Shown here piece after piece: positions 52,279-64,000 of a stretch of 64,000 nt of DNA. A program made the translations under genes and the position numbers. The stretch lies in contig CM030332.1 in assembly GCA_017654855.1 (NCBI GenBank), forward strand, positions 2,418,001-2,482,000. Reading direction: 5' to 3'. The notes under the pieces were generated by a model. The model had not been told where the DNA came from. It saw only the letters and a program-made list of their open reading frames with translations, and did not search any database. This DNA comes from Podospora anserina (Eukaryota). Within the stretch, counting starts at the first letter, position 1. Each line of letters opens with the position of its first letter.

Positions 52279-52377
52279 TGCAGACAGTGGGGTTCGAACC
52301 CACGCATCTCTCGATAATGGTGATAAAAGTTATATGTAACTTAAAACCATCGCCTTAGACCACTCGGCCATGTCTGC
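52279..52377 (-). tRNA. tRNA-Leu(UAA), intron-containing
   Basis: Reverse complement folds as GCAGACA-TG-GCCGAGTGGTCTAAGGC-G-ATGGT-TT-TAA-G-[about 17-nt intron TTACATATAACTTTTAT]-C-ACCAT-long variable arm-GTGGG-TTCGAAC-CCCAC-TGTCTGC-A. T-runs follow. Confidence 0.93.
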
Positions 52378-54409: not shown

Positions 54410-56149
54410 GTGAATGAGTTCAGGTCAACTAACAAGATCATAGACACCATCCTCTCAGCTTCCATACCAGCCCTCATTCTCGTCCATCTCATAATGGCTC
54501 CTTACACCAAAGTTGAGGAATCATTCAACATTCAAGCCACACACGATGTGCTTGTCTACGGAACCCCCAGTTCAAACATCCACAGCAGGCTGTCCCACAC
54601 CTACGATCACTTCACATTCCCTGGTGCTGTTCCACGAACCTTTGTCGGCTCAGTGTTGTTGGCCGGTATATCACAACCCATCATTCTCATTCTAGGCTTC
54701 CAGCATGCACAGATCATCATTCGTGCCTTGCTTGGTCTATTCAATGCCTTCAGCTTACACATCTTCACCCGCAACCTTCGCCAAGCCTACGGCCCTGCTG
54801 CAGCAAGATGGTATCTCCTCCTCCAAGCCAGCCAGTTCCACGTCTTATTCTATGCCTCACGCACTCTCCCGAATATGTTCGCCTTTGGCCTCACCACCCT
54901 GGCCAGTTCTTACCTGTTACCAAACCCCAAGAACATCAAATCGACACCCCGTCGCCAACGTCTAGCGATAACAATGTTCGTCTTCGCGGCAGTCATCTTC
55001 CGCTCTGAAGTTGCCCTGCTCCTTGCTACCAACCTCCTTTACCTCGTCTTGCTGCCTGCCATCTCCATCGAACAAATCATCTTCCCCTTTGCGGCATCGT
55101 TCGCCATTGCTTTGGCAAGCTCAGTCCCAATCGACAGCTATTTTTGGCAAAAGCCCATATGGCCGGAACTATGGGGCTTTTACTACAACGTCGTCGGGGG
55201 CAACTCCTCAAACTGGGGGACGTCACCATGGTATTACTACTTTGTCTCGGCTCTACCAAGACTACTCGTCAACCCACTTTCTTGCACAGTTCTCATCCCT
55301 TATTCGCTATATCACCCTGCCTTGGCGCCCGCAGCGAAGAAACTTGTCATTCCGTCATTACTCTTCGTCGCCATTTACTCGCTCCAGCCCCACAAAGAAG
55401 CGAGGTTCATCTTCTACGTCGTCCCCTCCCTCACAGCAGCCGCTGCCCTCGGCGCTGCTACTCTCTCCCGGAAATCGCAAGTCCTCACCCTTATTCTCTT
55501 CGCCTCAGTGCTCGCATCATTCGCCATCTCAACTGGGATGTTGCTCATCTCATCACTCAACTACCCCGGCGGCGAAGCCCTTTCGTACCTCGCCACCTCC
55601 CTGGCTGAATCACCATCCACCAGCTCAGGGGAGGTAGTCCCCATTCACGCAGATGTCCTCTCCTGCATGACGGGTGTCACCCTCTTCGGGTCTTCCTCCG
55701 CGGCGGGATCGGCGTTTCCAAAGCTGGAGCCGGATGGGGGGTTGATCTTTCATGAGAAGGGCAGCCGGGGTAAGGGGGTTGTTATCAAGGTTGATAAGAC
55801 GGAGGATGAAGGCGATCTAGTGCAGGAGGAGTTTTGGAGGGGGTTTAGGTATGTTTTGACGGAGGATCCTGACAAGGTGAAGGAGAGGAGTAAGGGGGTT
55901 GAGTGGGAGACTGTTGGGGTTGTGAGGGGGTTCGGGGGGGTGGAGGTGTTGAGGCCGGGTCAGGAGGGGCAAAGGGGGAATGTAGGAGAGGTGGTAGGGA
56001 AGGGGAGGGTGGTGGAGGCGGTGAGGGATAAGGTGAGAGGGTTGACGGGCGGTTGGTGGGTTGGGCCGGGGATGGTGGATAGGATTTGGATTTTGAGACG
56101 GGGGAGGGGTGGGAAGGCGGGGTGGAAGGTACGGGAGGAGAGTTCATAA
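54410..56149 (+). CDS. ALG12: Dol-P-Man alpha-1,6-mannosyltransferase Alg12 (GT22)
   Basis: 'APYTKVEESFNIQA.HD', 'YDHFTFPGAVPRTFVG', 'FYASRTLPN', 'FRSE', 'QPHKE.RFI.Y', 'SSLNYPGGEAL'. The true start is probably in a short upstream exon (about 54303-54350) spliced to the acceptor near 54442. Confidence 0.9.
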   Translation: MNEFRSTNKIIDTILSASIPALILVHLIMAPYTKVEESFNIQATHDVLVYGTPSSNIHSRLSHTYDHFTFPGAVPRTFVGSVLLAGISQPIILILGFQHAQIIIRALLGLFNAFSLHIFTRNLRQAYGPAAARWYLLLQASQFHVLFYASRTLPNMFAFGLTTLASSYLLPNPKNIKSTPRRQRLAITMFVFAAVIFRSEVALLLATNLLYLVLLPAISIEQIIFPFAASFAIALASSVPIDSYFWQKPIWPELWGFYYNVVGGNSSNWGTSPWYYYFVSALPRLLVNPLSCTVLIPYSLYHPALAPAAKKLVIPSLLFVAIYSLQPHKEARFIFYVVPSLTAAAALGAATLSRKSQVLTLILFASVLASFAISTGMLLISSLNYPGGEALSYLATSLAESPSTSSGEVVPIHADVLSCMTGVTLFGSSSAAGSAFPKLEPDGGLIFHEKGSRGKGVVIKVDKTEDEGDLVQEEFWRGFRYVLTEDPDKVKERSKGVEWETVGVVRGFGGVEVLRPGQEGQRGNVGEVVGKGRVVEAVRDKVRGLTGGWWVGPGMVDRIWILRRGRGGKAGWKVREESS

Positions 56150-56465
56150 GTTAGGGGGTGTATGTTGTCTGATAAATGATGGTTTCGTCTATCAAAGGTA
56201 CTCGAATACAAGACGTCTGTTTTTTAACTTTTGCTGGCCCCTAACCAGCAGTACCAGCCCTCGAAAGAGGCGCTATTTACTTCGCCGACAACAAGTAATT
56301 GAAGTCAAGGTTATTACACCAAGTCCCCGGCTGCTCTGACTCTCTTTCCGACGCGGCTTTGAGTTTGTACGCGTTGGCTTCAAGCTAAGCAAGCCACTAG
56401 ATTACCTTGTTCCTGCTTGGGGCTGTGCAGCTGGCTTATAAGGTTCGATTTCAGACTGGGCTTTT

Positions 56466-56531
56466 GGCGAAGTAGTGGACTCAATGAAGCTCGTTGGATG
56501 AACTCACCTTGCCCATGTATGGGCCTTCGCT
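56466..56531 (+). ncRNA. Putative terminal-stem small RNA, unit 1 (66 nt, degenerate)
   Basis: GGCGAAG-TAGT ... hairpin GCCCA/TGGGC (56511-56524) - CTTCGCT, then TCTAATTTT. Confidence 0.45.
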
Positions 56532-56979
56532 TCTAATTTTGTCGATCCTGAGGAGAGGATCTCCGAAGAGAACATTCCATATTTTTTTCCTTCATTCTCA
56601 CTCAACACTGAATTGGCCATGCCTGGATGCAGTGAAAGAGAAGAGAGGGTGTGACCTTTGTAGGCGGGTGGTGCAGTTAGAAGCCTGTAAGTCAAGCTGT
56701 GGAAGGCATATGTTCAATCCTGCGGAATGGGAAAAGAATGTTCTTTTTGCATCTTTTTGAAACAGATATCATCTGTGATATAGGAACTCGAGAAAGAGGC
56801 CCATGCTAATCAAAAAAGCTTGACTGGGGAAATAATAGCCAAACAACTCGGCCTTTGATAGATCAACTTCGAGATGTGACACGTGATTAGTTTTGACAGC
56901 TGTGACCAGGCCCGATGGGGCTACTTTAACTTTTGGCAGGCTAGAGGGTATATAAGATCCTTTTCCGAGAGTTTCTTTC

Positions 56980-57080
56980 AGCGAAGTAGCTGGTATTACA
57001 ACTTCGAGCTCACCACTCGACCCAGCAAACCGGCCCTGGCAACAGAGCCACCCACGCACTTGGATAATTGTGCCTTCGCT
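56980..57080 (+). ncRNA. Putative terminal-stem small RNA, unit 2 (101 nt)
   Basis: AGCGAAG-TAGCTGG ... GCAC/GTGC hairpin (57056-57073) - CTTCGCT-TTT. Upstream GGGTATATAA-N6-TTTCCG-N11. Confidence 0.6.
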
Positions 57081-57441
57081 TTTGCATTTTTCATCACGAC
57101 ATCCCCAAAGGTCTCTCGGACTGCACGGCATGGGTGGGGGCGAGGCAGTTAAGGGGTTGGATAGCTAGTACTTTTCTGTAACTTTGGCGTGAATGGCTGC
57201 GTGGCAGGCAATACCTAAATCGGGAGCAATTTGAACGTTGTGCTTTCGAATCCAGGAGCGGCGGCCTTGCGGATCGCCTCAGCCCGAACCTCGTACAGAC
57301 CTACAGAGCCGATTCTCCAGGGCCCCTTTTTCCATATTTTTGGCATGTGCAGAAGATGGGAGACAGGTGCGAAGGGCTGCTTAAAACTGCCTTACGTCTA
57401 TCTGGCTTGGATAATTGACACATAGTTTCAGGAAAGTTGTC

Positions 57442-57664
57442 AGCGAAGTAAGGTAGCTAATTCACTTGATTATTTGACAATTAACTTTCTTGCCCGGATA
57501 TGGGTCTGCTCTTTTATTTTTGGAGACATATATGACTTCCCTTTTCTTCCAGTTTTGGATTATCCAAACACCGTCAATGCACTCGTTTGTTCGGGAAGAT
57601 GTCTGTCGGTAATATTGGCTGGTAGGTGGTGTAAGCTCCTGCGCATCCGAACTTCACTCTCGCT
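57442..57664 (+). ncRNA. Putative terminal-stem small RNA, unit 3 (long/degenerate, about 223 nt)
   Basis: AGCGAAG-TAAGGTAGC. The best 3' partner is CTCGCTTTT at 57659, preceded by a GTTCGG/CCGAAC stem. Confidence 0.35.
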
Positions 57665-58004
57665 TTTGCTTCCTAGCTTACCTCTAACCCTCTCTTTTTT
57701 TGCCCTCTTGCACAACGTGGAGAGTGGAGACCGGGAACAGCACACCTCACCACAACCATCTTCATGTAAACAAGATGTCCAGTGCATACATCTGTATTTG
57801 AAGCAAACTTTCGAAACGGCTCGAGTTCAAATGTCTCTTTTTGCCTGTTTTCTCTTTTTTCATTGGCTGTGAATCCCAAACCTTTGGAGCACAAGAGCCG
57901 CTAGGGAATCCGTCCTCATTTTCACAGGAGGGACACTTACTGCACCACCACAACAGGCTGCAATTGAGTCGGCTATATCATCTTATTTTCTGTTGAGGCT
58001 AAAC

Positions 58005-58127
58005 AGCGAAGTAGCTGGTATCAAATTGAGTATATCATACTGCAACATATATATCCTCGGATCACCACTGAGGGCTTCGGTTCTCGCCAGACATCTACCT
58101 GTTTGCAAGTAGATGATCTCCTTCGCT
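58005..58127 (+). ncRNA. Putative terminal-stem small RNA, unit 4 (123 nt)
   Basis: AGCGAAG-TAGCTGG ... AGACATCTAC/GTAGATGATCT hairpin (58089-58119) - C-CTTCGCT-TTT. Confidence 0.6.
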
Positions 58128-58340
58128 TTTGCCATGGCAACCGAGCCAAGGGGAGAACTTCGCATCTTTTTGGATGTCAACTCTCATCGTCCTGCGTCTT
58201 TTCCCTTTTTTGTCCTTTGAGGTTGCGTGGGAGGGCTAACATGAGGAGAGAGATGTCCTCAATTTCATACCAAGACCCCACCACCACCACCACCACTTGG
58301 GGACTTTGGGCTATGAACTTTGTTTCCGTCAGAGGCTTTC

Positions 58341-58432
58341 AGCGAAGTAGCGTCCAAATACTATCATTCGAGTTTTCGAACAATCTGTGAGGTCTGGGGG
58401 TTCAAGAATACCTCGAGGTATTCGCCTTCGCT
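58341..58432 (+). ncRNA. Putative terminal-stem small RNA, unit 5 (92 nt)
   Basis: AGCGAAG-TAGC ... GAATACC-TCGA-GGTATTC (58406-58423) - GC-CTTCGCT-TTTATTTT. Confidence 0.6.
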
Positions 58433-58749
58433 TTTATTTTGTCTTGCCCACAAATCCAGAGGCTGGCCACCTCAAGGGCTAGCAGGGGCAGTAATCGATA
58501 CTTAGATCAAAACACTATTTTTGACCTCTTAACGCAAGTGGATGTGTGCATACTTTATTTTGAAACGTCGTGTGTTCGAATCTCTGTCTTCTCAGTTGCA
58601 TTTTTCTTCTTGTCCAGGGTGTGACCAAGTAATCGTTTTTAGTGTTGAAAGATGTCCTCAATCTGTGCCGAGACCAACAGCTATTTACACCACCTACCTA
58701 GGCACACACCAGCACTAGGGATATCATCAGTGTTTCCGACACAATCATC

Positions 58750-58866
58750 AGCGAAGTAGCCTAAACATGCCATCTTATGATGAGTACTTGATTGCAACGG
58801 ATAACCACTGGGCCAGGTCACGGTCACTCTTAGACATCTACTTGTAGATATTCTAGGTCCTTCGCT
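58750..58866 (+). ncRNA. Putative terminal-stem small RNA, unit 6 (117 nt)
   Basis: AGCGAAG-TAGC ... TAGACATCTAC/GTAGATATTCTA hairpin (58831-58855) ... CTTCGCT-TTTT. Confidence 0.6.
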
Positions 58867-59142
58867 TTTTCGCAGTGTGCTCTCATTGTCGCTAGTGGCG
58901 AATGCTCGCAACTTTCCACTGCTTTTTAGCAACATATTTCCAGGCACCCTAACGCAGATGTCTGTATGCAAACTTGAAAATAAGACGTCCTGCGTTCGAG
59001 TCTTTCTTTTGCTTCTGCATTGTCTTTTGTGTGTTTAGGGGGGAAGATGTCCTCACTTTCTGCCAAGACCCCGCCACTTACACCCACTGGAAGAGCTATA
59101 TAGTGACCTAGGGATATCATCTTTGTTTCCGGAAGAGATATC

Positions 59143-59255
59143 AGCGAAGTAGCTGGAATAAACCACCTTTGGATGATCTACCATTATATCTACGGATAAC
59201 ACTGCGGGCCTGGGGGCATTAAAGGGACGTCTACGAGTAGACGTTCTCCTTTGCT
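59143..59255 (+). ncRNA. Putative terminal-stem small RNA, unit 7 (113 nt)
   Basis: AGCGAAG-TAGCTGG ... GGGACGTCTA-CGAG-TAGACGTTCT (59224-59247) - C-CTTTGCT (G-U wobble keeps pairing) - TTTT. Confidence 0.6.
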
Positions 59256-59559
59256 TTTTGCTTTGGGCTGAGATAACTCCCAGCAAGCCGGGATGACTAC
59301 TACTCTTGCCCTCACCCCTGGCTATGTAGGGATTCCGGTTAATTTAGCATACATGTATGCGTCTCGGTGAGAATATAAGACGTCTCTGTTCGAATGTCTG
59401 TTGCTGCGATTGTTTTTTCTTTTTTCCATACTAGAACTGCTTTTGGGGCTAAGAAAAGATGTCCTCAATCCTCGGTCTGGCTAGGTAGCCAAGGCCTGTG
59501 GAGTCTGAGAGCTGGGCAGGTAGGAAGGGATATCATCGACTTTTCCGGGCATGTCTTTC

Positions 59560-59644
59560 AGCGAAGTAGCTGGTATCAAACAAACTTATCAAGAACGTGA
59601 TGACAGTCTGGGTGGCTTAATGCCCCTAGGATGTCACCATCGCT
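59560..59644 (+). ncRNA. Putative terminal-stem small RNA, unit 8 (85 nt)
   Basis: AGCGAAG-TAGCTGG ... hairpin TGACA-GTCTGGG-TGGC/GCC-CCTAGGA-TGTCA (59601-59636) - C-CATCGCT-TTT. Confidence 0.6.
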
Positions 59645-59976
59645 TTTGCTTTTTATGTAGTTACTTTACAGGTAGACAGGATTACGCAAATCAGGGCTTC
59701 CGAGACGGACAGCTTCAAGTCAAACTTATCACAGAGGGTTCTTTTAAGTGGTTTAACCTAGTGGGCTGCGTCTGGATGTAAAGTTAGAGACGTTCTAGTT
59801 CGAGTGTGTCATGTTTCATCGATTTTCTCTTTTCATGATCAAGGTGTGCCTGGGGCGAACAAAAAGATGTCCTCAAGTCCACCTTTGGCTTAGCGGAGAT
59901 AAGGGGCATCAGATGGGTGGAAGTGAAGGGGGAAGAAGAAGAGGGTATATCACCTTGTTTTCTGAACTCAATTATC

Positions 59977-60073
59977 AGCGAAGTTAGCTGAATCCATACA
60001 TACCTTACCTGAAAAAGCGGCCTTGGGGGATTTTGACATCTTTAATGATGTGATTGCAGGTGTCACCTTCGCT
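59977..60073 (+). ncRNA. Putative terminal-stem small RNA, unit 9 (97 nt)
   Basis: AGCGAAG-TTAGCTG ... TGACATCT/AGGTGTCA stem (60034-60065) - C-CTTCGCT-TTCTTTTT. Confidence 0.6.
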
Positions 60074-60414
60074 TTCTTTTTCTTCTTGTCATCAGATGTT
60101 GGAAACAGGACAGGGAGTGGTCCCCCATCTTCCAGCAAGGCCATCTTGTGGACGAAGATTCAATACGAGGGTTGGCGCAAACATATGCATTTCCATCTAT
60201 TTTCAAGACGCCGTGAGTTCGAGTTTGCAATTTTCTTTTTTGATTCGCTATCATCAGATCTGGAGAAGGGTGTATGCGGTGGTGGAAAAAGCCGTCCTCA
60301 ATTCTTGGCTACCTGTAAAATCTTCTCGGACTGGACTAGCCTGGGGCTTTCACATGGAATATCGAGGGCGATAATATCTGCTTGAGATATGCAAATCTTC
60401 CATCATTATCCTCA

Positions 60415-61516
60415 CTACTCATTTTCCTCCTGTCCTCCTCGAATTCTGTGCGCTGCCACCCGCTCTTTGAGACTGCCTTTGAGAGCATCCCACAAACTGA
60501 ACACCAAGGTAACATGGCCTAAAATTAAGCAAACTGCCTGGTCAAGCTCATCAATTTTGTAAGAGCTTTTCGGAAAAGCCATAGATAGCCTGAGAGCCAA
60601 GCTTTGATTGCTCGACATGTACTTGGTTTCGGTCGCTCCGCCCAGAATAATGATGGCCACTTGGATGACGAGAAAGGGAATAGATATGACAGGCCATATA
60701 GCATCAAACCAACCCTTAACTGTGAGGGTTAATTTGGCTCTTGCAAGATCGAGCCGTTTTTGTATTGTGTGTAAGGGAATGCGTTCCTGCGTGGCATTTG
60801 ACGAGGCGTTGAACAAAATGTCGCACTGATGGGACGCAAGTGAAGTAATTTGACTCAAGACTGCCAGCGCAACAGCAACGATTAAAGTCGTCATAATACC
60901 GGTAATGACCGGTGCGTCAAAGTTATGACAGAAGGGCCTCACCATGTTGCTCTCGTCGATTGGTACATTCCATCCGGTTTTGATTACTATGGCCTGTGGG
61001 CAATATTCAGCTCCTGTCTCAAGATTTCTCTCCTTACTCCAACGGAAAGAAAGAAGTTACTACACTTACCCACTCTGGCGACCAAGTAAAAGCAGTCACC
61101 ACCAGCACTATCAACGCCCTTTTCATCTGGCCCTTCCAAGTTGCCAACCCAAAAAGTGCGAGGCCGAAGCCAGAGAATGTCTCGCACACCGTCAATGGCG
61201 CTTCAAGGGCGGATGAAAATTGTTGAGAAGATATGTCGGAGCTTGTCAACAGAGTCTTGAGACTCGAGGTTGATGAAGATGGTGCTTGAAAGAAGATCAA
61301 ATTGTACACATGGCCAGCTGCCACCGCTGGGATGGTGAGTGCTATGATGAAGTCAGGCGAGATGGTGTTGGAGCGGGAGTATTTGGGGTTGAACGTCCAT
61401 GTAACAAAGAGGGAGAGGAGGATGCAGAGCCAGCCGCCCATGTTCCCTGGACCATAGAGGGAAGACACATTGCTGAATCTGTCGAGGGGGTGGTGGCTTT
61501 CACCGGAAACATTCAT
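60415..61516 (-). CDS. Hypothetical multi-pass membrane protein (2 exons), embedded antisense within the array
   Basis: ORFs 61034-61516 and 60415-60945 can be joined by an intron at about 60994-61069 (GTAAGT...GCTGAAT...CAG on the minus strand). Several hydrophobic segments; motifs 'SSLYGPGNMGGW' and 'IDELDQAVCL'. Confidence 0.65.
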
Positions 61517-61994
61517 TGTGCCCGGAAAACAATAAAGACCAAGACTTTTTCGCTTGTTGTCATAGGAGAATGGATTTAGTCAAATGCCTGTCAATGTATG
61601 GAACTCCCACATCCTCGTTAGCCAATAGCCATATCACGATATACAACAGGTAACTTCACCTATTTTCACTGTGCCTCACTCGAGATGATGCTACAGCTTT
61701 GAACCGGGGCAGTGCCTCGAAGAAGGTTGCATCGAGCGGGAAATCGGCGTTGGCCAGACTCTGAAGCCCGACATGCCTTGCGGCTGGCTCCAGGTACCAA
61801 ACATGCATTGGCAGATGGGAAACATGGCCGTGTCTGAGTCTCGTCGTTCGATTATGAGAACTTTGTTTCATGCTTGTTGCAAACCTAGGTAGGAGCCAAG
61901 AGATACACAAGATCTCAAAACTGCAATCAAGTGGTTTGGCACGTGAGTGGCGTTCTCTCTAGCCTTATCAACTACTTTTCCGACCTTCAATGTC

Positions 61995-62054
61995 AGCGAA
62001 GTAGCGAACTACATTCTCAGACGACTTGAAATTGTATCTTCGGATACCTTCGCT
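61995..62054 (+). ncRNA. Putative terminal-stem small RNA, unit 10 (60 nt)
   Basis: AGCGAAG-TAGC ... GTATC-TTCG-GATAC (cUUCGg tetraloop, 62034-62047) directly abutting CTTCGCT-TTTTTTT. Confidence 0.65.
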
Positions 62055-62451
62055 TTTTTTTGCACTTTCCAGACATATCCAAGCTCAATATCAACATGCC
62101 CCCTTCTTTTTGACATCCCTATCGCGCTCTCGTGGACAGAACAAGCCCAAGCAACCGCCATTTCTCTTTTTACTGGGTCGCTGACATGGTTGGACGTGTC
62201 TCACCTCAAACTAGAGACGTCAGAGTTCGAATCAGACATGTCCCCAACTTCATGTCTTTTTCACAATCTCTCTTTTGCAGTCTGCAACTTTCACAAGATG
62301 ATATAAGACTGCAGTTAATGTGGTGTCATTGCTAAAATGCCTTAACCAACTTTATTCTTACCTAAGTGCTCTTTCTCTCTTGTTCACATGTCAGCACGTG
62401 CCGCCAGCCTGTGTCTGGGGTATACAGCCTCCCTTTCCACACCTTACCTCC

Positions 62452-62515
62452 AGCGACGTAGCGGAAAATTAAATAGGAATTTACCCTGTCCCCCTTCGGG
62501 GGAAACACCTTCGCT
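62452..62515 (+). ncRNA. Putative terminal-stem small RNA, unit 11 (64 nt)
   Basis: AGCGACG-TAGC ... TGT-C-CCCC-TTCG-GGGG-AA-ACA (cUUCGg, core 62491-62502) - C-CTTCGCT-TTT. Confidence 0.6.
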
Positions 62516-63690
62516 TTTGTTCACTTTTTTTTAGAAGATCAACAAACAGATCTTCTCACCTCACGATCTTCAACACCTAACTACGCCAGCAAAGCTAGCA
62601 GAGGCCACGCTGGGGCACCTCAACCCCTGGTCTCTGAGGACAGGTGTTGTGGCGCAGACAGCTGGATGCCAGCACAATGAAAATGTTTTTGAGCTTGGAC
62701 GTCGCTGTTCGAATTCAATGACTTGATTATCTTTGCATGCTTTTGTTGAGTCAAGTTCGCTTTTAATGAATGCTTGAATGCACTGGGAGTTGATGTGTAT
62801 TTTCTTGCGAGCGACAGAGGGTTGTTTTCTTCAGCGGTATGTACATATGATTGATCAACTGGCATGTTATTTGTAAGCTGGGTTTGCTTATCACATATTT
62901 GATAATGGAAATCTTTATTTCCCTTGGAGCGGGGGAGATGTTGGGTAGAGCTGTCATACAGGAGATTGTGATGAACTTGTCGTGATGTCGACTGTGGAGT
63001 AATCTGTCAGTGACTGCTGGCTGGGTTATCCCCGGTGTAAGATGCTTAACTCCGGGGCTGGGTCTTGGCAGCTCTGATGGTGCTGGTTTGGAGTTGGCTT
63101 TATTGATCTTGAAGAGTCTGTAAAACCAAAAGGCTTGGTTTATAGAATGTTGTTTTTTTTGGTAACTTTTCGTTTCACCTCGCGAAGGCCATCATATTTA
63201 AGAGCAATATGTGTGTTGTGAATTGATTACAGTAAAAGTCCAGTTGTTCAGGGGTAAGGCAAGCTTTCATTGCTCCATGACATCATCAGCCGTGTTGTTC
63301 CTGAATGGCAGGCTCAACATCAGATTGGTGATCGGAGCATTTGGGAAGACATCCGCATCTTGCACGTGATGACTTTTCAACTTCTAGCGAGAAGAGACTC
63401 TTTCTTCACTGTAATATTTGATCTCTTTTACACACTTATAACACCGGACAAACATCGCTCTTATGCATCTACCAACCAGAAAAAGAACATACCGAGTTCC
63501 CAGCGCAGCCTCTCCTGACCCGCCTCCCTCCTTCTTGCAACCTCCTTCATACCCTCCTTAATGACACAGCAAGGCAGTATCAGCAGTATCAGCAGTATCA
63601 ACTTCTCCGAAGACTTCCAAATTCGATATTCCTGAATGTCTACACCTTACTCTTAATACCTACCCCCTACCTTCACCCCGTCTCTCAACA

Positions 63691-64000
63691 ATGCCCTCAA
63701 GACCTGTATCCCGAGCCTCCCGAACTTCCCGCTCAAAATTACGTCCCTCCCTCGACCCCCACGCCTCCCGCCCTCCCCCATCAGCACCTCACCCACCCCG
63801 CTCCTTCCGCGAACACTTCTTCCACTCCCTAACCCCTTACTCAGGCCCCTACCAAGTCGCCTTCCTCGAAATTGAAGTTACCGTCCGATCACCCCGTCAT
63901 TTCAGCCGCATCAAGCGCAATGGGTCCTACGCCCTCAAGCTCGACACCGTCCTCTTCGCCGTCTACTACCCCACCGACAACTCTGACCTCCCACGCAGCG
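63691..64000 (+). CDS. Platelet-activating-factor acetylhydrolase-like protein, 5' part (runs off the window)
   Basis: Open frame from ATG 63691 to the window end: '...SLTPYSGPYQVAFLEIEVTVRSPRHFSRIKRNGSYALKLDTVLFAVYYPTD', which resembles fungal PAF-AH N-termini. Confidence 0.7.
   Translation, partial: MPSRPVSRASRTSRSKLRPSLDPHASRPPPSAPHPPRSFREHFFHSLTPYSGPYQVAFLEIEVTVRSPRHFSRIKRNGSYALKLDTVLFAVYYPTDNSDLPRS

Follow-up and report, generated by a model that had tools for sequence, protein, structure and literature searches.

In a 64 000-nucleotide window of the Podospora anserina genome (contig CM030332.1, positions 2,418,001 to 2,482,000 of the forward strand; coordinates below are those of the window), an ALG12-like gene is followed by eleven diverged units, arranged head to tail and all on the + strand. 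We interpret this array as eleven old paralogues of an undescribed, tRNA-related small-RNA gene family of filamentous ascomycetes, of RNA polymerase III (Pol III) type, and put the probability of this reading at roughly 0.6. Evidence for a real gene family is good, and the shared anatomy of the units, their recurrence in other lineages, and the transcription of part of the array are all directly observed.

Unit starts, taken as the A of AGCGAAG, fall at 56466, 56980, 57442, 58005, 58341, 58750, 59143, 59560, 59977, 61995, and 62452 (U1 to U11), giving start-to-start spacings of 514, 462, 563, 336, 409, 393, 417, 417, 2018, and 457 bp; the units, strand, and spacings of the original prediction, which had been made by a model from the letters alone, were thereby reproduced exactly. 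The word AGCGAAGTAGC occurs in seven exact copies, all on the + strand between 56980 and 61995 and none elsewhere in the 64 kb (the U9 copy carries a 1-nt insertion), and at ≤ 2 mismatches it yields 24 matches against 11.4 expected, a count that 0 of 100 shuffles attain. Six exact and four one-mismatch copies of CCTTCGCTTTT are present in the array, all on the + strand (39 matches vs 20.4 expected). AAGATGTCCTCAA is found there in three exact copies, two with one mismatch and one with two, and ACGTC-N3/4-GTTCGA in seven good copies, with most units having one of each. Of 21 plus-strand GTTCGA sites in the window, the 6.3-kb array holds nine. These motifs occur far more often than chance would give, and they are restricted to the array.

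Motif order is identical in all eleven units, and between the motifs the units barely align (mean column identity 33–46%), in agreement with the earlier description of five motifs kept in constant order amid unalignable sequence. A recent tandem repeat or satellite, which that description had also discounted, is rejected by this low identity and by Tandem Repeats Finder, which detected no ∼410-bp array. GC content of the array (0.45–0.48) is ordinary for intergenic DNA of the window. When unit interiors were compared with the rest of the 64 kb, sense and antisense, nothing above 12–13 nt was found except a palindrome in U5.

All eleven units share one layout: a TATA-like box (−33 to −24; cores GGGATATCATC, GTATATAAG, GCTATATCATC, and similar), TTTCCG (−17), TC|AGCGAAGTAGC, an interior, CCTTCGCT, and a run of T4–T8. 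TTTCCG lies near −17 in most units, a pyrimidine precedes the start A, and AGCGAAG-UA-GC follows. The interior is variable and 40–105 nt long; the predicted RNAs measure 63–126 nt in the window and 63–131 nt overall, the eight fungal metagenome copies described below included. Each predicted RNA ends in C-CUUCGCU, directly followed by T4–T8, with T5 or longer nearby where the first run is only T4. A run of at least T4 stands ≤ 5 nt from the stem in 11/11 window units and 8/8 metagenome copies, and one of at least T5 within 50 nt downstream in 17 of these 19 copies. Pol III transcripts usually have an oligo(U) end of this kind, to which La binds.

The two end words, AGCGAAG and CUUCGCU, are exact complements that would form a 7-bp terminal stem. 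Across the 19 copies, pairing holds in 97.7% of the 132 stem cells, and the stem is present in 8 of the 11 minimum-energy folds of window units. Positions T8, A9, and G10, right after the 7-nt stem strand, are invariant in all 19 copies. With U8 A9 G10 C11 coming after seven stem nucleotides, the register corresponds to that of a tRNA with its A box.

The same gene type recurs outside the window. One scan of metagenome contigs with the pattern AGCGAAGTAGC-N74-104-CCTTCGCTTTT returned six loci (L001–L006), four of them fungal: two pairs of near-identical contigs, L003/L004 with three copies each within 2 kb and L005/L006 with one copy each, eight copies in all. L004 also bears a gene for a PX/DUF3818 protein whose closest clusters are from Ascomycota. 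Several shared features were not part of the search pattern, namely a TATA box at about −30 in 8/8 copies (CATATAGCC, TACATAACC, TATATAACC, and GGTATATAGGG), CC ahead of the start A, and the extension AGCGAAGUAGCU; the third copy on each L003/L004 contig, with an interior of 109 nt, lies beyond the scanned gap range. Behind the stem, the copies carry T4, then G[AT]TCGATTC 6–15 nt on in six of eight (GGTCGATTC in the other two), then T5 at +33 to +43. The units of the window have different interiors and promoters. Two end words, TATA distance, and terminator are thus kept in at least three lineages while all else has changed. As a control, the same pattern run over 596 Gb of prokaryote genomes gave only two isolated matches, without TATA, T-run, or B-box-like features. 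The remaining loci (L001, L002, L007, and L008) were set aside as chance or bacterial matches; L001 (1151–1258, metagenome contig) and L008 (696–803, genome bin) fall in the same GC-rich conserved Bryobacteraceae-type region, a chance match.

Within the L003/L004 pair, the RNA genes are 96–97% identical, as is most of the surrounding sequence; the two contigs are too similar for selection to be visible. Two paralogues on L004 (4806–4910 and 6180–6285) share an identical interior stretch in which the orthologous copy on L003 (1833–1939) differs, suggesting gene conversion between neighboring L004 copies. At L004 4911–4957, 6286–6330, and 6843–6885 and at L005 980–1029, a small hairpin between T4 and T5 carries the B-box-like site in its loop, and its stem varies among copies (GUUGC/GCAAC, CUCC/GGAG, and UGCC/GGCA) with mostly ordinary z-scores. 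This trailer hairpin would belong to the primary transcript if the T4 were leaky.

Transcription was assessed on low-depth assembled contigs of four runs from four studies (X1, X2, X3, and X8), in which strand, level, and exact ends are not readable; that these contigs represent RNA follows from the spliced joints of the gene inserted between U9 and U10, which they contain. Contigs overlap U2–U5 as well as U10–U11. They span 56989–57318/57441, starting 9 nt inside U2; in three studies they run from 57724/57729/57734 to 58135/58145/58147, ending at the U4 terminator region; and in two studies they cover 58160–58449 and 58291–58447, ending just beyond the U5 terminator. Over U10–U11, they extend across 62027–62494 and from 62238 to beyond 62800. 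No part of 58450–60276 (U6–U9) is covered by contigs of the four runs, and we draw no inference from this. The array is not silent, and part of it is transcribed; the contig ends common at the U4 and U5 terminators and the start 9 nt inside U2 are a weak hint at the predicted units. One X1 contig carries an extra T in the T8 run of U10 (62054–62061), which could reflect length polymorphism or polymerase slippage. The contigs that cover 62238–62800 and beyond come from three studies and run past the array end towards an open reading frame (ORF) starting at 63691; they could belong to an unannotated transcript or a long 5′ untranslated region.

A relation to tRNA genes is suggested by several features. 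In addition to the 7-bp acceptor-type stem made of both ends and followed by U8 R9 G10, the L003/L004 copies contain ATGGTGTAGCGGT, with 13 nt identical to a published Neurospora tRNA-Glu primer, and their 5′ 31 nt fold into stem, UA, and a D-like arm whose loop contains GG. Next to the 3′ stem strand, the metagenome copies form a helix that varies on both sides (GGUGUAG/CUACACC, GGUGCAG/CUGCACC, and GGUGGU/ACCACC); these three sequence types were read by eye from folds, and MAFFT set their 5′ strands in different columns. No T loop or B box was found inside the RNA, GTTCGA-type sites lying 6–191 nt past the stem. The only tRNA gene of the window, a tRNA-Leu(UAA) at 52279–52377 on the − strand with a 17-nt intron, was detected with Rfam and with ARAGORN when introns were allowed (it was missed at default settings), and it likewise ends in T4 then T5.

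The known families compared do not account for the units. The claim that they belong to no recognized RNA family held up, in that Rfam 15 gave no match to the array at gathering scores and nothing meaningful at E ≤ 10 (array and single units) or E ≤ 1 (metagenome loci). No match at E ≤ 10 was obtained for U6 small nuclear RNA (snRNA), and the Rfam models of Y RNA and stem-bulge RNA (sbRNA) matched neither array, loci, nor single units. In the 19-copy alignment, C and D boxes of small nucleolar RNAs (snoRNAs) are absent from the ends and there is no ACA end; partial C/D-type matches to UGAUGA inside unit U6 of the array are at chance level (E 2.7 and 6.5). Descent from 5S rRNA was dropped, with no 5S match at E ≤ 10, as was a miniature inverted-repeat transposable element with 7-bp terminal inverted repeats, since such repeats would include neither the conserved TATA box nor the T run, and the interiors are not alike. 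A short interspersed nuclear element (SINE) or other tRNA-derived retroposon fits no better: conservation is lowest in the interior, the copies have promoter and spacer motifs in common, and they stand in tandem. Quantitative PCR primers for Neurospora milR-1 to milR-4 found no match in the window at ≤ 4 mismatches, a weak test across species. In the main texts of the literature searched, we found no description of such a family, and the motif strings were absent save for one unrelated primer. One review states that no Y-RNA- or stem-bulge-like RNAs have been identified in fungi. Neurospora Pol III genes for microRNA-like RNAs (milRNAs) depend on a TATA-like element and have a T cluster directly after the functional RNA, and milR-1 is described there as having neither A nor B box (PMC3547838).

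We propose that each unit would be a self-contained Pol III-type gene in which the TATA-like box ∼30 bp upstream would set the start at the A after a pyrimidine, U8 A9 G10 C11 just inside the RNA (+8) may act as an A-box-like element, and the T run would end transcription. The outlying B-box-like GTTCGA site could bind TFIIIC, as in the layout of the yeast U6 gene. The product would be an RNA of 63–126 nt, closed by the invariant 7-bp stem of its own ends and bearing U's at its 3′ end. The invariant end module may be recognized both as promoter DNA and by a common protein, with the variable interior telling the paralogues apart. That Pol III transcribes the units, where precisely the RNAs begin and end, and what function they may have are inferences. 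A bolder extension, which we regard as doubtful, is that the units represent the first Y-RNA/sbRNA-like class of fungi: tRNA-descended Pol III RNAs whose acceptor-like end module would bring in a single shared protein (La, a factor for tRNA processing or export, or a Ro-like protein), while a fast-evolving interior would give each paralogue its own partner or target, so that arrays would be diversifying repertoires and not redundant copies.

Several results weigh against reading the array as a tRNA-related Pol III gene family. A check for covariation in the stem turned out negative: over the 19 copies there are zero compensatory changes, just two G-U variants and three unpaired cells. The stem rests on the complementarity of two invariant words, and the helix itself is not proven by covariation. 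The lack of compensatory change would fit a 5′ strand that is also constrained as a promoter DNA or protein site, which the 3′ strand must then follow. Fold energies are ordinary (z < −2 in 4/11 window units and in no fungal metagenome copy). The hairpin originally placed before CTTCGCT does appear in most minimum-energy folds, with 4–10 bp in most cases, but in an anchored test with 500 shuffles it beats the shuffles in only 2/11 window units (U7 and U9) and 0/7 metagenome copies (rows entered one base short); evidence for the 3′ hairpin is weak. No tRNA was identified in any unit or in L002–L006 by the Rfam tRNA (RF00005) models or ARAGORN, so "tRNA-related" rests on layout and short identities and not on membership.

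Further difficulties concern the B-box-like site, the lineages, and the transcripts. The site lies 127–191 nt past the stem in the window vs 6–15 nt in the other lineages, and the module that contains it can be read equally as belonging to the unit before or the unit after. The array is periodic, with a module both before U1 (a half copy) and after U11, and the window alone therefore cannot assign the module to either neighbor; the original prediction was right that an A-box/B-box module recurs, but its placement upstream of each unit is matched by an equally good placement downstream of the preceding one, and elsewhere the B-box-like site follows T4 by 6–15 nt. The further lineages number just two. 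Contigs reach ∼280 nt (U4) and 50–180 nt (U5) upstream of the predicted starts, and they run through both the T4 and the T5 of U2, so longer transcripts exist. Contigs of the four RNA runs gave no discrete small RNA or 5′ end. The predicted small-RNA family with a Pol III look is partly supported: it gains from its recurrence in two further ascomycete lineages, where the copies have a TATA box and a terminator of their own, but not from a discrete RNA of 60–125 nt in the contigs or from stem covariation.

These longer transcripts are where a processing explanation would start. Small RNAs may be cut from transcripts that cross the array, the end stem together with the adjoining hairpin mimicking the top half of a tRNA and attracting RNase P and RNase Z, or the 3′ hairpins may be milRNA-type precursors as at the Neurospora milR loci. 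A precedent for excision is mascRNA, a tRNA-like RNA cut out by RNase P and RNase Z. Stem and next hairpin abut in most folds, consistent with such cutting, and in Neurospora milRNAs are located immediately ahead of a T cluster, one of them depending on RNase Z acting on a co-transcribed tRNA. However, processing needs neither a fixed TATA-like box at 30 bp nor a T run after the stem, and both are kept in 11/11 units and 8/8 other copies; the T5–T8 runs between units would halt Pol III, and there is no mark of a Pol II unit. For the milRNA variant, hairpins of mostly 4–10 bp are short for Dicer, and the milR-1 to milR-4 primers match nothing in the window, weak as that test is across species. 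We consider this explanation unlikely.

If the units instead made no functional RNA, the array could have arisen by tandem duplication of a tRNA-derived element, either a pseudogene or SINE-like, and now be in decay, its conserved parts being DNA sites for TBP/TFIIIB and TFIIIC, perhaps chromatin or boundary elements of extra-TFIIIC type between ALG12 and the next gene. An A-box/B-box-like pair once per unit with no recognizable tRNA, the visible decay of U3, the ordinary fold energies, and a stem without covariation would all be expected of such remnants. But DNA sites leave unexplained that three lineages with differing interiors, promoters, and flanks have kept a 7-nt word and, 40–105 nt away before a T run, its exact complement; copies of a SINE are alike in the body and unlike in the flanks, the reverse of what is seen here; and parts of the array are transcribed. 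This account strikes us as improbable. That the units belong to a known family (a lineage-specific snoRNA, an snRNA variant, a Y/vault-like RNA, or a catalogued repeat) lying outside Rfam 15 and the literature searched is very improbable: Rfam holds curated families only and covers fungal small RNAs thinly, yet nothing matched at gathering or lax E-values, the ends carry neither C/D boxes nor ACA, and the main texts of the literature searched yielded no such family and no motif string save in one unrelated primer.

Most of what is known about the Pol III transcriptome of filamentous fungi is extrapolated from yeasts. This gene type is found in at least three ascomycete lineages and in local clusters in at least two of them; if confirmed, it would be a new multi-copy entry among eukaryotic Pol III RNAs, with invariant ends and free interiors, and a natural example of a tRNA-gene promoter put to new use with its B box outside the RNA. 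Short promoters of the TATA-plus-leader kind could also serve guide-RNA expression in these fungi.

The individual units, all on the + strand, vary in how well they keep the common layout. U1 (56431–56540) has its promoter at 56431–56465 (CTTATAAGG) and its predicted RNA at 56466–56540 (GGCGAAGTAGT...CCTTCGCTTCTAATTTT), with a G1-U wobble in the stem; GTCGATCC right behind its T4 resembles the metagenome copies. U2 (56945–57091; promoter 56945–56979, GTATATAAGATCC..TTTTCCG; RNA 56980–57083) has a back-up T5 at 57087–57091 and a cloverleaf-like fold (z −3.43). The degenerate U3 (57407–57522; promoter 57407–57441, GGATAATTGAC; RNA about 57442–57522, AGCGAAGTAAG...GGGTCTGCTCTTTTATTTTT) has a decayed 3′ stem strand, and the stem is missing from its fold. 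U4 occupies 57970–58130 (promoter 57970–58004, GCTATATCATC; RNA 58005–58130), with the next T5 at 58170–58174, and U5 occupies 58306–58440 (promoter 58306–58340, GGCTATGAAC..TTTCCG; RNA 58341–58440, ending in CCTTCGCTTTTATTTT).

The promoters of the next three units share the core GGGATATCATC. In U6 (58715–58870), the promoter at 58715–58749 reads GGGATATCATC-N4-TTTCCG and the RNA at 58750–58870 runs to a T5. U7 (59108–59259; promoter 59108–59142, GGGATATCATC..TTTCCG; RNA 59143–59259, CCTTTGCTTTTT) carries a G-U stem variant and a 3′ hairpin of 10 bp that 0/500 shuffles equal. U8 (59525–59654; promoter 59525–59559, GGGATATCATC..TTTTCCG; RNA 59560–59647, CCATCGCTTTT) has one stem mismatch, a back-up T5 at 59650–59654, and no stem in its minimum-energy fold. 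For U9 (59942–60081; promoter 59942–59976, GGTATATCACC; RNA 59977–60081, AGCGAAGTTAGC...CCTTCGCTTTCTTTTT), the 3′ hairpin is 8 bp and is equaled by 21/500 shuffles. Beyond the inserted gene follow U10 (61960–62061; promoter 61960–61994, GCCTTATCAAC..TTTTCCG; RNA 61995–62061, T8) and U11 (62417–62534; promoter 62417–62451, GGTATACAGCC; RNA 62452–62518, AGCGACGTAGC...CCTTCGCTTTT; T8 at 62527–62534). A possible 3′ fragment of a twelfth unit, lacking the 5′ half, was noted by eye at 62719–62764 (+), where an ACTTGA...TCAAGT hairpin precedes TCGCTTTT.

Spacers carry a module ∼130–190 nt past each stem, made up of an A-box-like word (TAACGCAAGTGG and variants), ACGTC, GTTCGA(A/G)T, and a T-rich stretch; downstream of it come AAGATGTCCTCAA and then the next TATA-like box. 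Just past the ALG12-like ORF and 255 bp before U1, a half module (AAGACGTCTG plus T6) stands at 56209–56226, also on the + strand like all sites listed here. U1 is followed by a B-box-like site at 56703–56720 (GGCATATGTTCAATCC) and U2 by a module at 57235–57253 (ACGTT-N-TTTCGAATCC). A module with the A-box-like word is found after U5 at 58546–58582 (TAACGCAAGTGG and ACGTCGTGTGTTCGAATC), and one reading TAACGCAGATG ... ACGTCCTGCGTTCGAGTC after U6 at 58966–59002. Further modules lie after U7 (59378–59396, AGACGTCTCTGTTCGAATG), U8 (59788–59806, AGACGTTCTAGTTCGAGTG), U9 (60206–60225, AGACGCCGTGAGTTCGAGTT), U10 (62215–62233, AGACGTCAGAGTTCGAATC), and the last unit, U11 (62697–62715, GGACGTCGCTGTTCGAATT), together with a weak one 150 bp before U10 (61836–61854, GTCTCGTCGTTCGATTA). 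The upstream motif precedes U5 by 91 bp (58250–58262, GAGATGTCCTCAA), U6 by 101 bp (58649–58661, AAGATGTCCTCAA), U7 by 99 bp (59044–59056, AAGATGTCCTCAC), U8 by 104 bp (59456–59468, AAGATGTCCTCAA), and U9 by 113 bp (59864–59876, AAGATGTCCTCAA); an orphan copy, AAGCCGTCCTCAA, stands at 60289–60301 at the edge of the inserted gene.

The gene presumed in the 2018-bp gap proved real: RNA contigs reveal a spliced protein-coding gene on the − strand (60277–61867) that interrupts the array and lies outside the family. Its exons are 61867–61659, 61586–61069, and 60992–60277, and its introns 60993–61068 and 61587–61658, with CT..AC joints in the spliced contigs (joint 60992/61069 in 4/4 runs and joint 61586/61659 in 3/4). 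It belongs to no Pfam family and, judging by the orphan AAGCCGTCCTCAA that abuts its 3′ end, seems to have taken the place of several units. Upstream of the array, the ALG12-like ORF at 54410–56149 matches Pfam Glyco_transf_22 (E 3e-47); the 3′ end of this ORF (55900–56140) is G-rich and of low complexity, with GGGGTGG-type repeats and a Tandem Repeats Finder hit of period 12 at 56106–56129. The label PAF-AH given to the downstream gene was not confirmed, its first 103 amino acids having no Pfam match.

Set against known systems, the units combine traits of several; in having a constant end module and a free interior, they come closest to Y RNAs, stem-bulge RNAs, and Dictyostelium Class I RNAs. 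Like Neurospora milRNA genes, they are filamentous-fungal units with a TATA-like element and a T cluster behind the RNA; unlike them, they are closed by an end stem, have mostly short hairpins, and show no sequence link. With Y RNAs and nematode sbRNAs, they share a length of ∼100 nt, ends that pair in a conserved stem, a variable interior, a U-rich 3′ end, and clustered paralogues, but their 7-bp stem opens into a junction and not into a long bulged helix. The Class I RNAs of Dictyostelium are likewise multigene, with a short terminal stem, a motif beside its 5′ strand, a variable interior, and a shared upstream element, whereas the units described here are longer, have no Rfam match, and carry a T-run end and A/B-box-like elements that point to a tRNA-type origin. 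The yeast U6 gene SNR6 resembles them in having TATA near −30, an internal A-box-like element, a T run, and a B-box-like site past the terminator; the RNA is unrelated, one conserved gene contrasts with eleven diverged copies, and the B-box distance here is 6–191 nt. Compared with tRNAs, no cloverleaf was found, the B-box-like site is outside the RNA, and lengths range over 63–131 nt, but the likenesses include a 7-bp end stem, U8 A9 G10 C11, the D-like arm of L004, a helix abutting the 3′ strand, and a T-run trailer.

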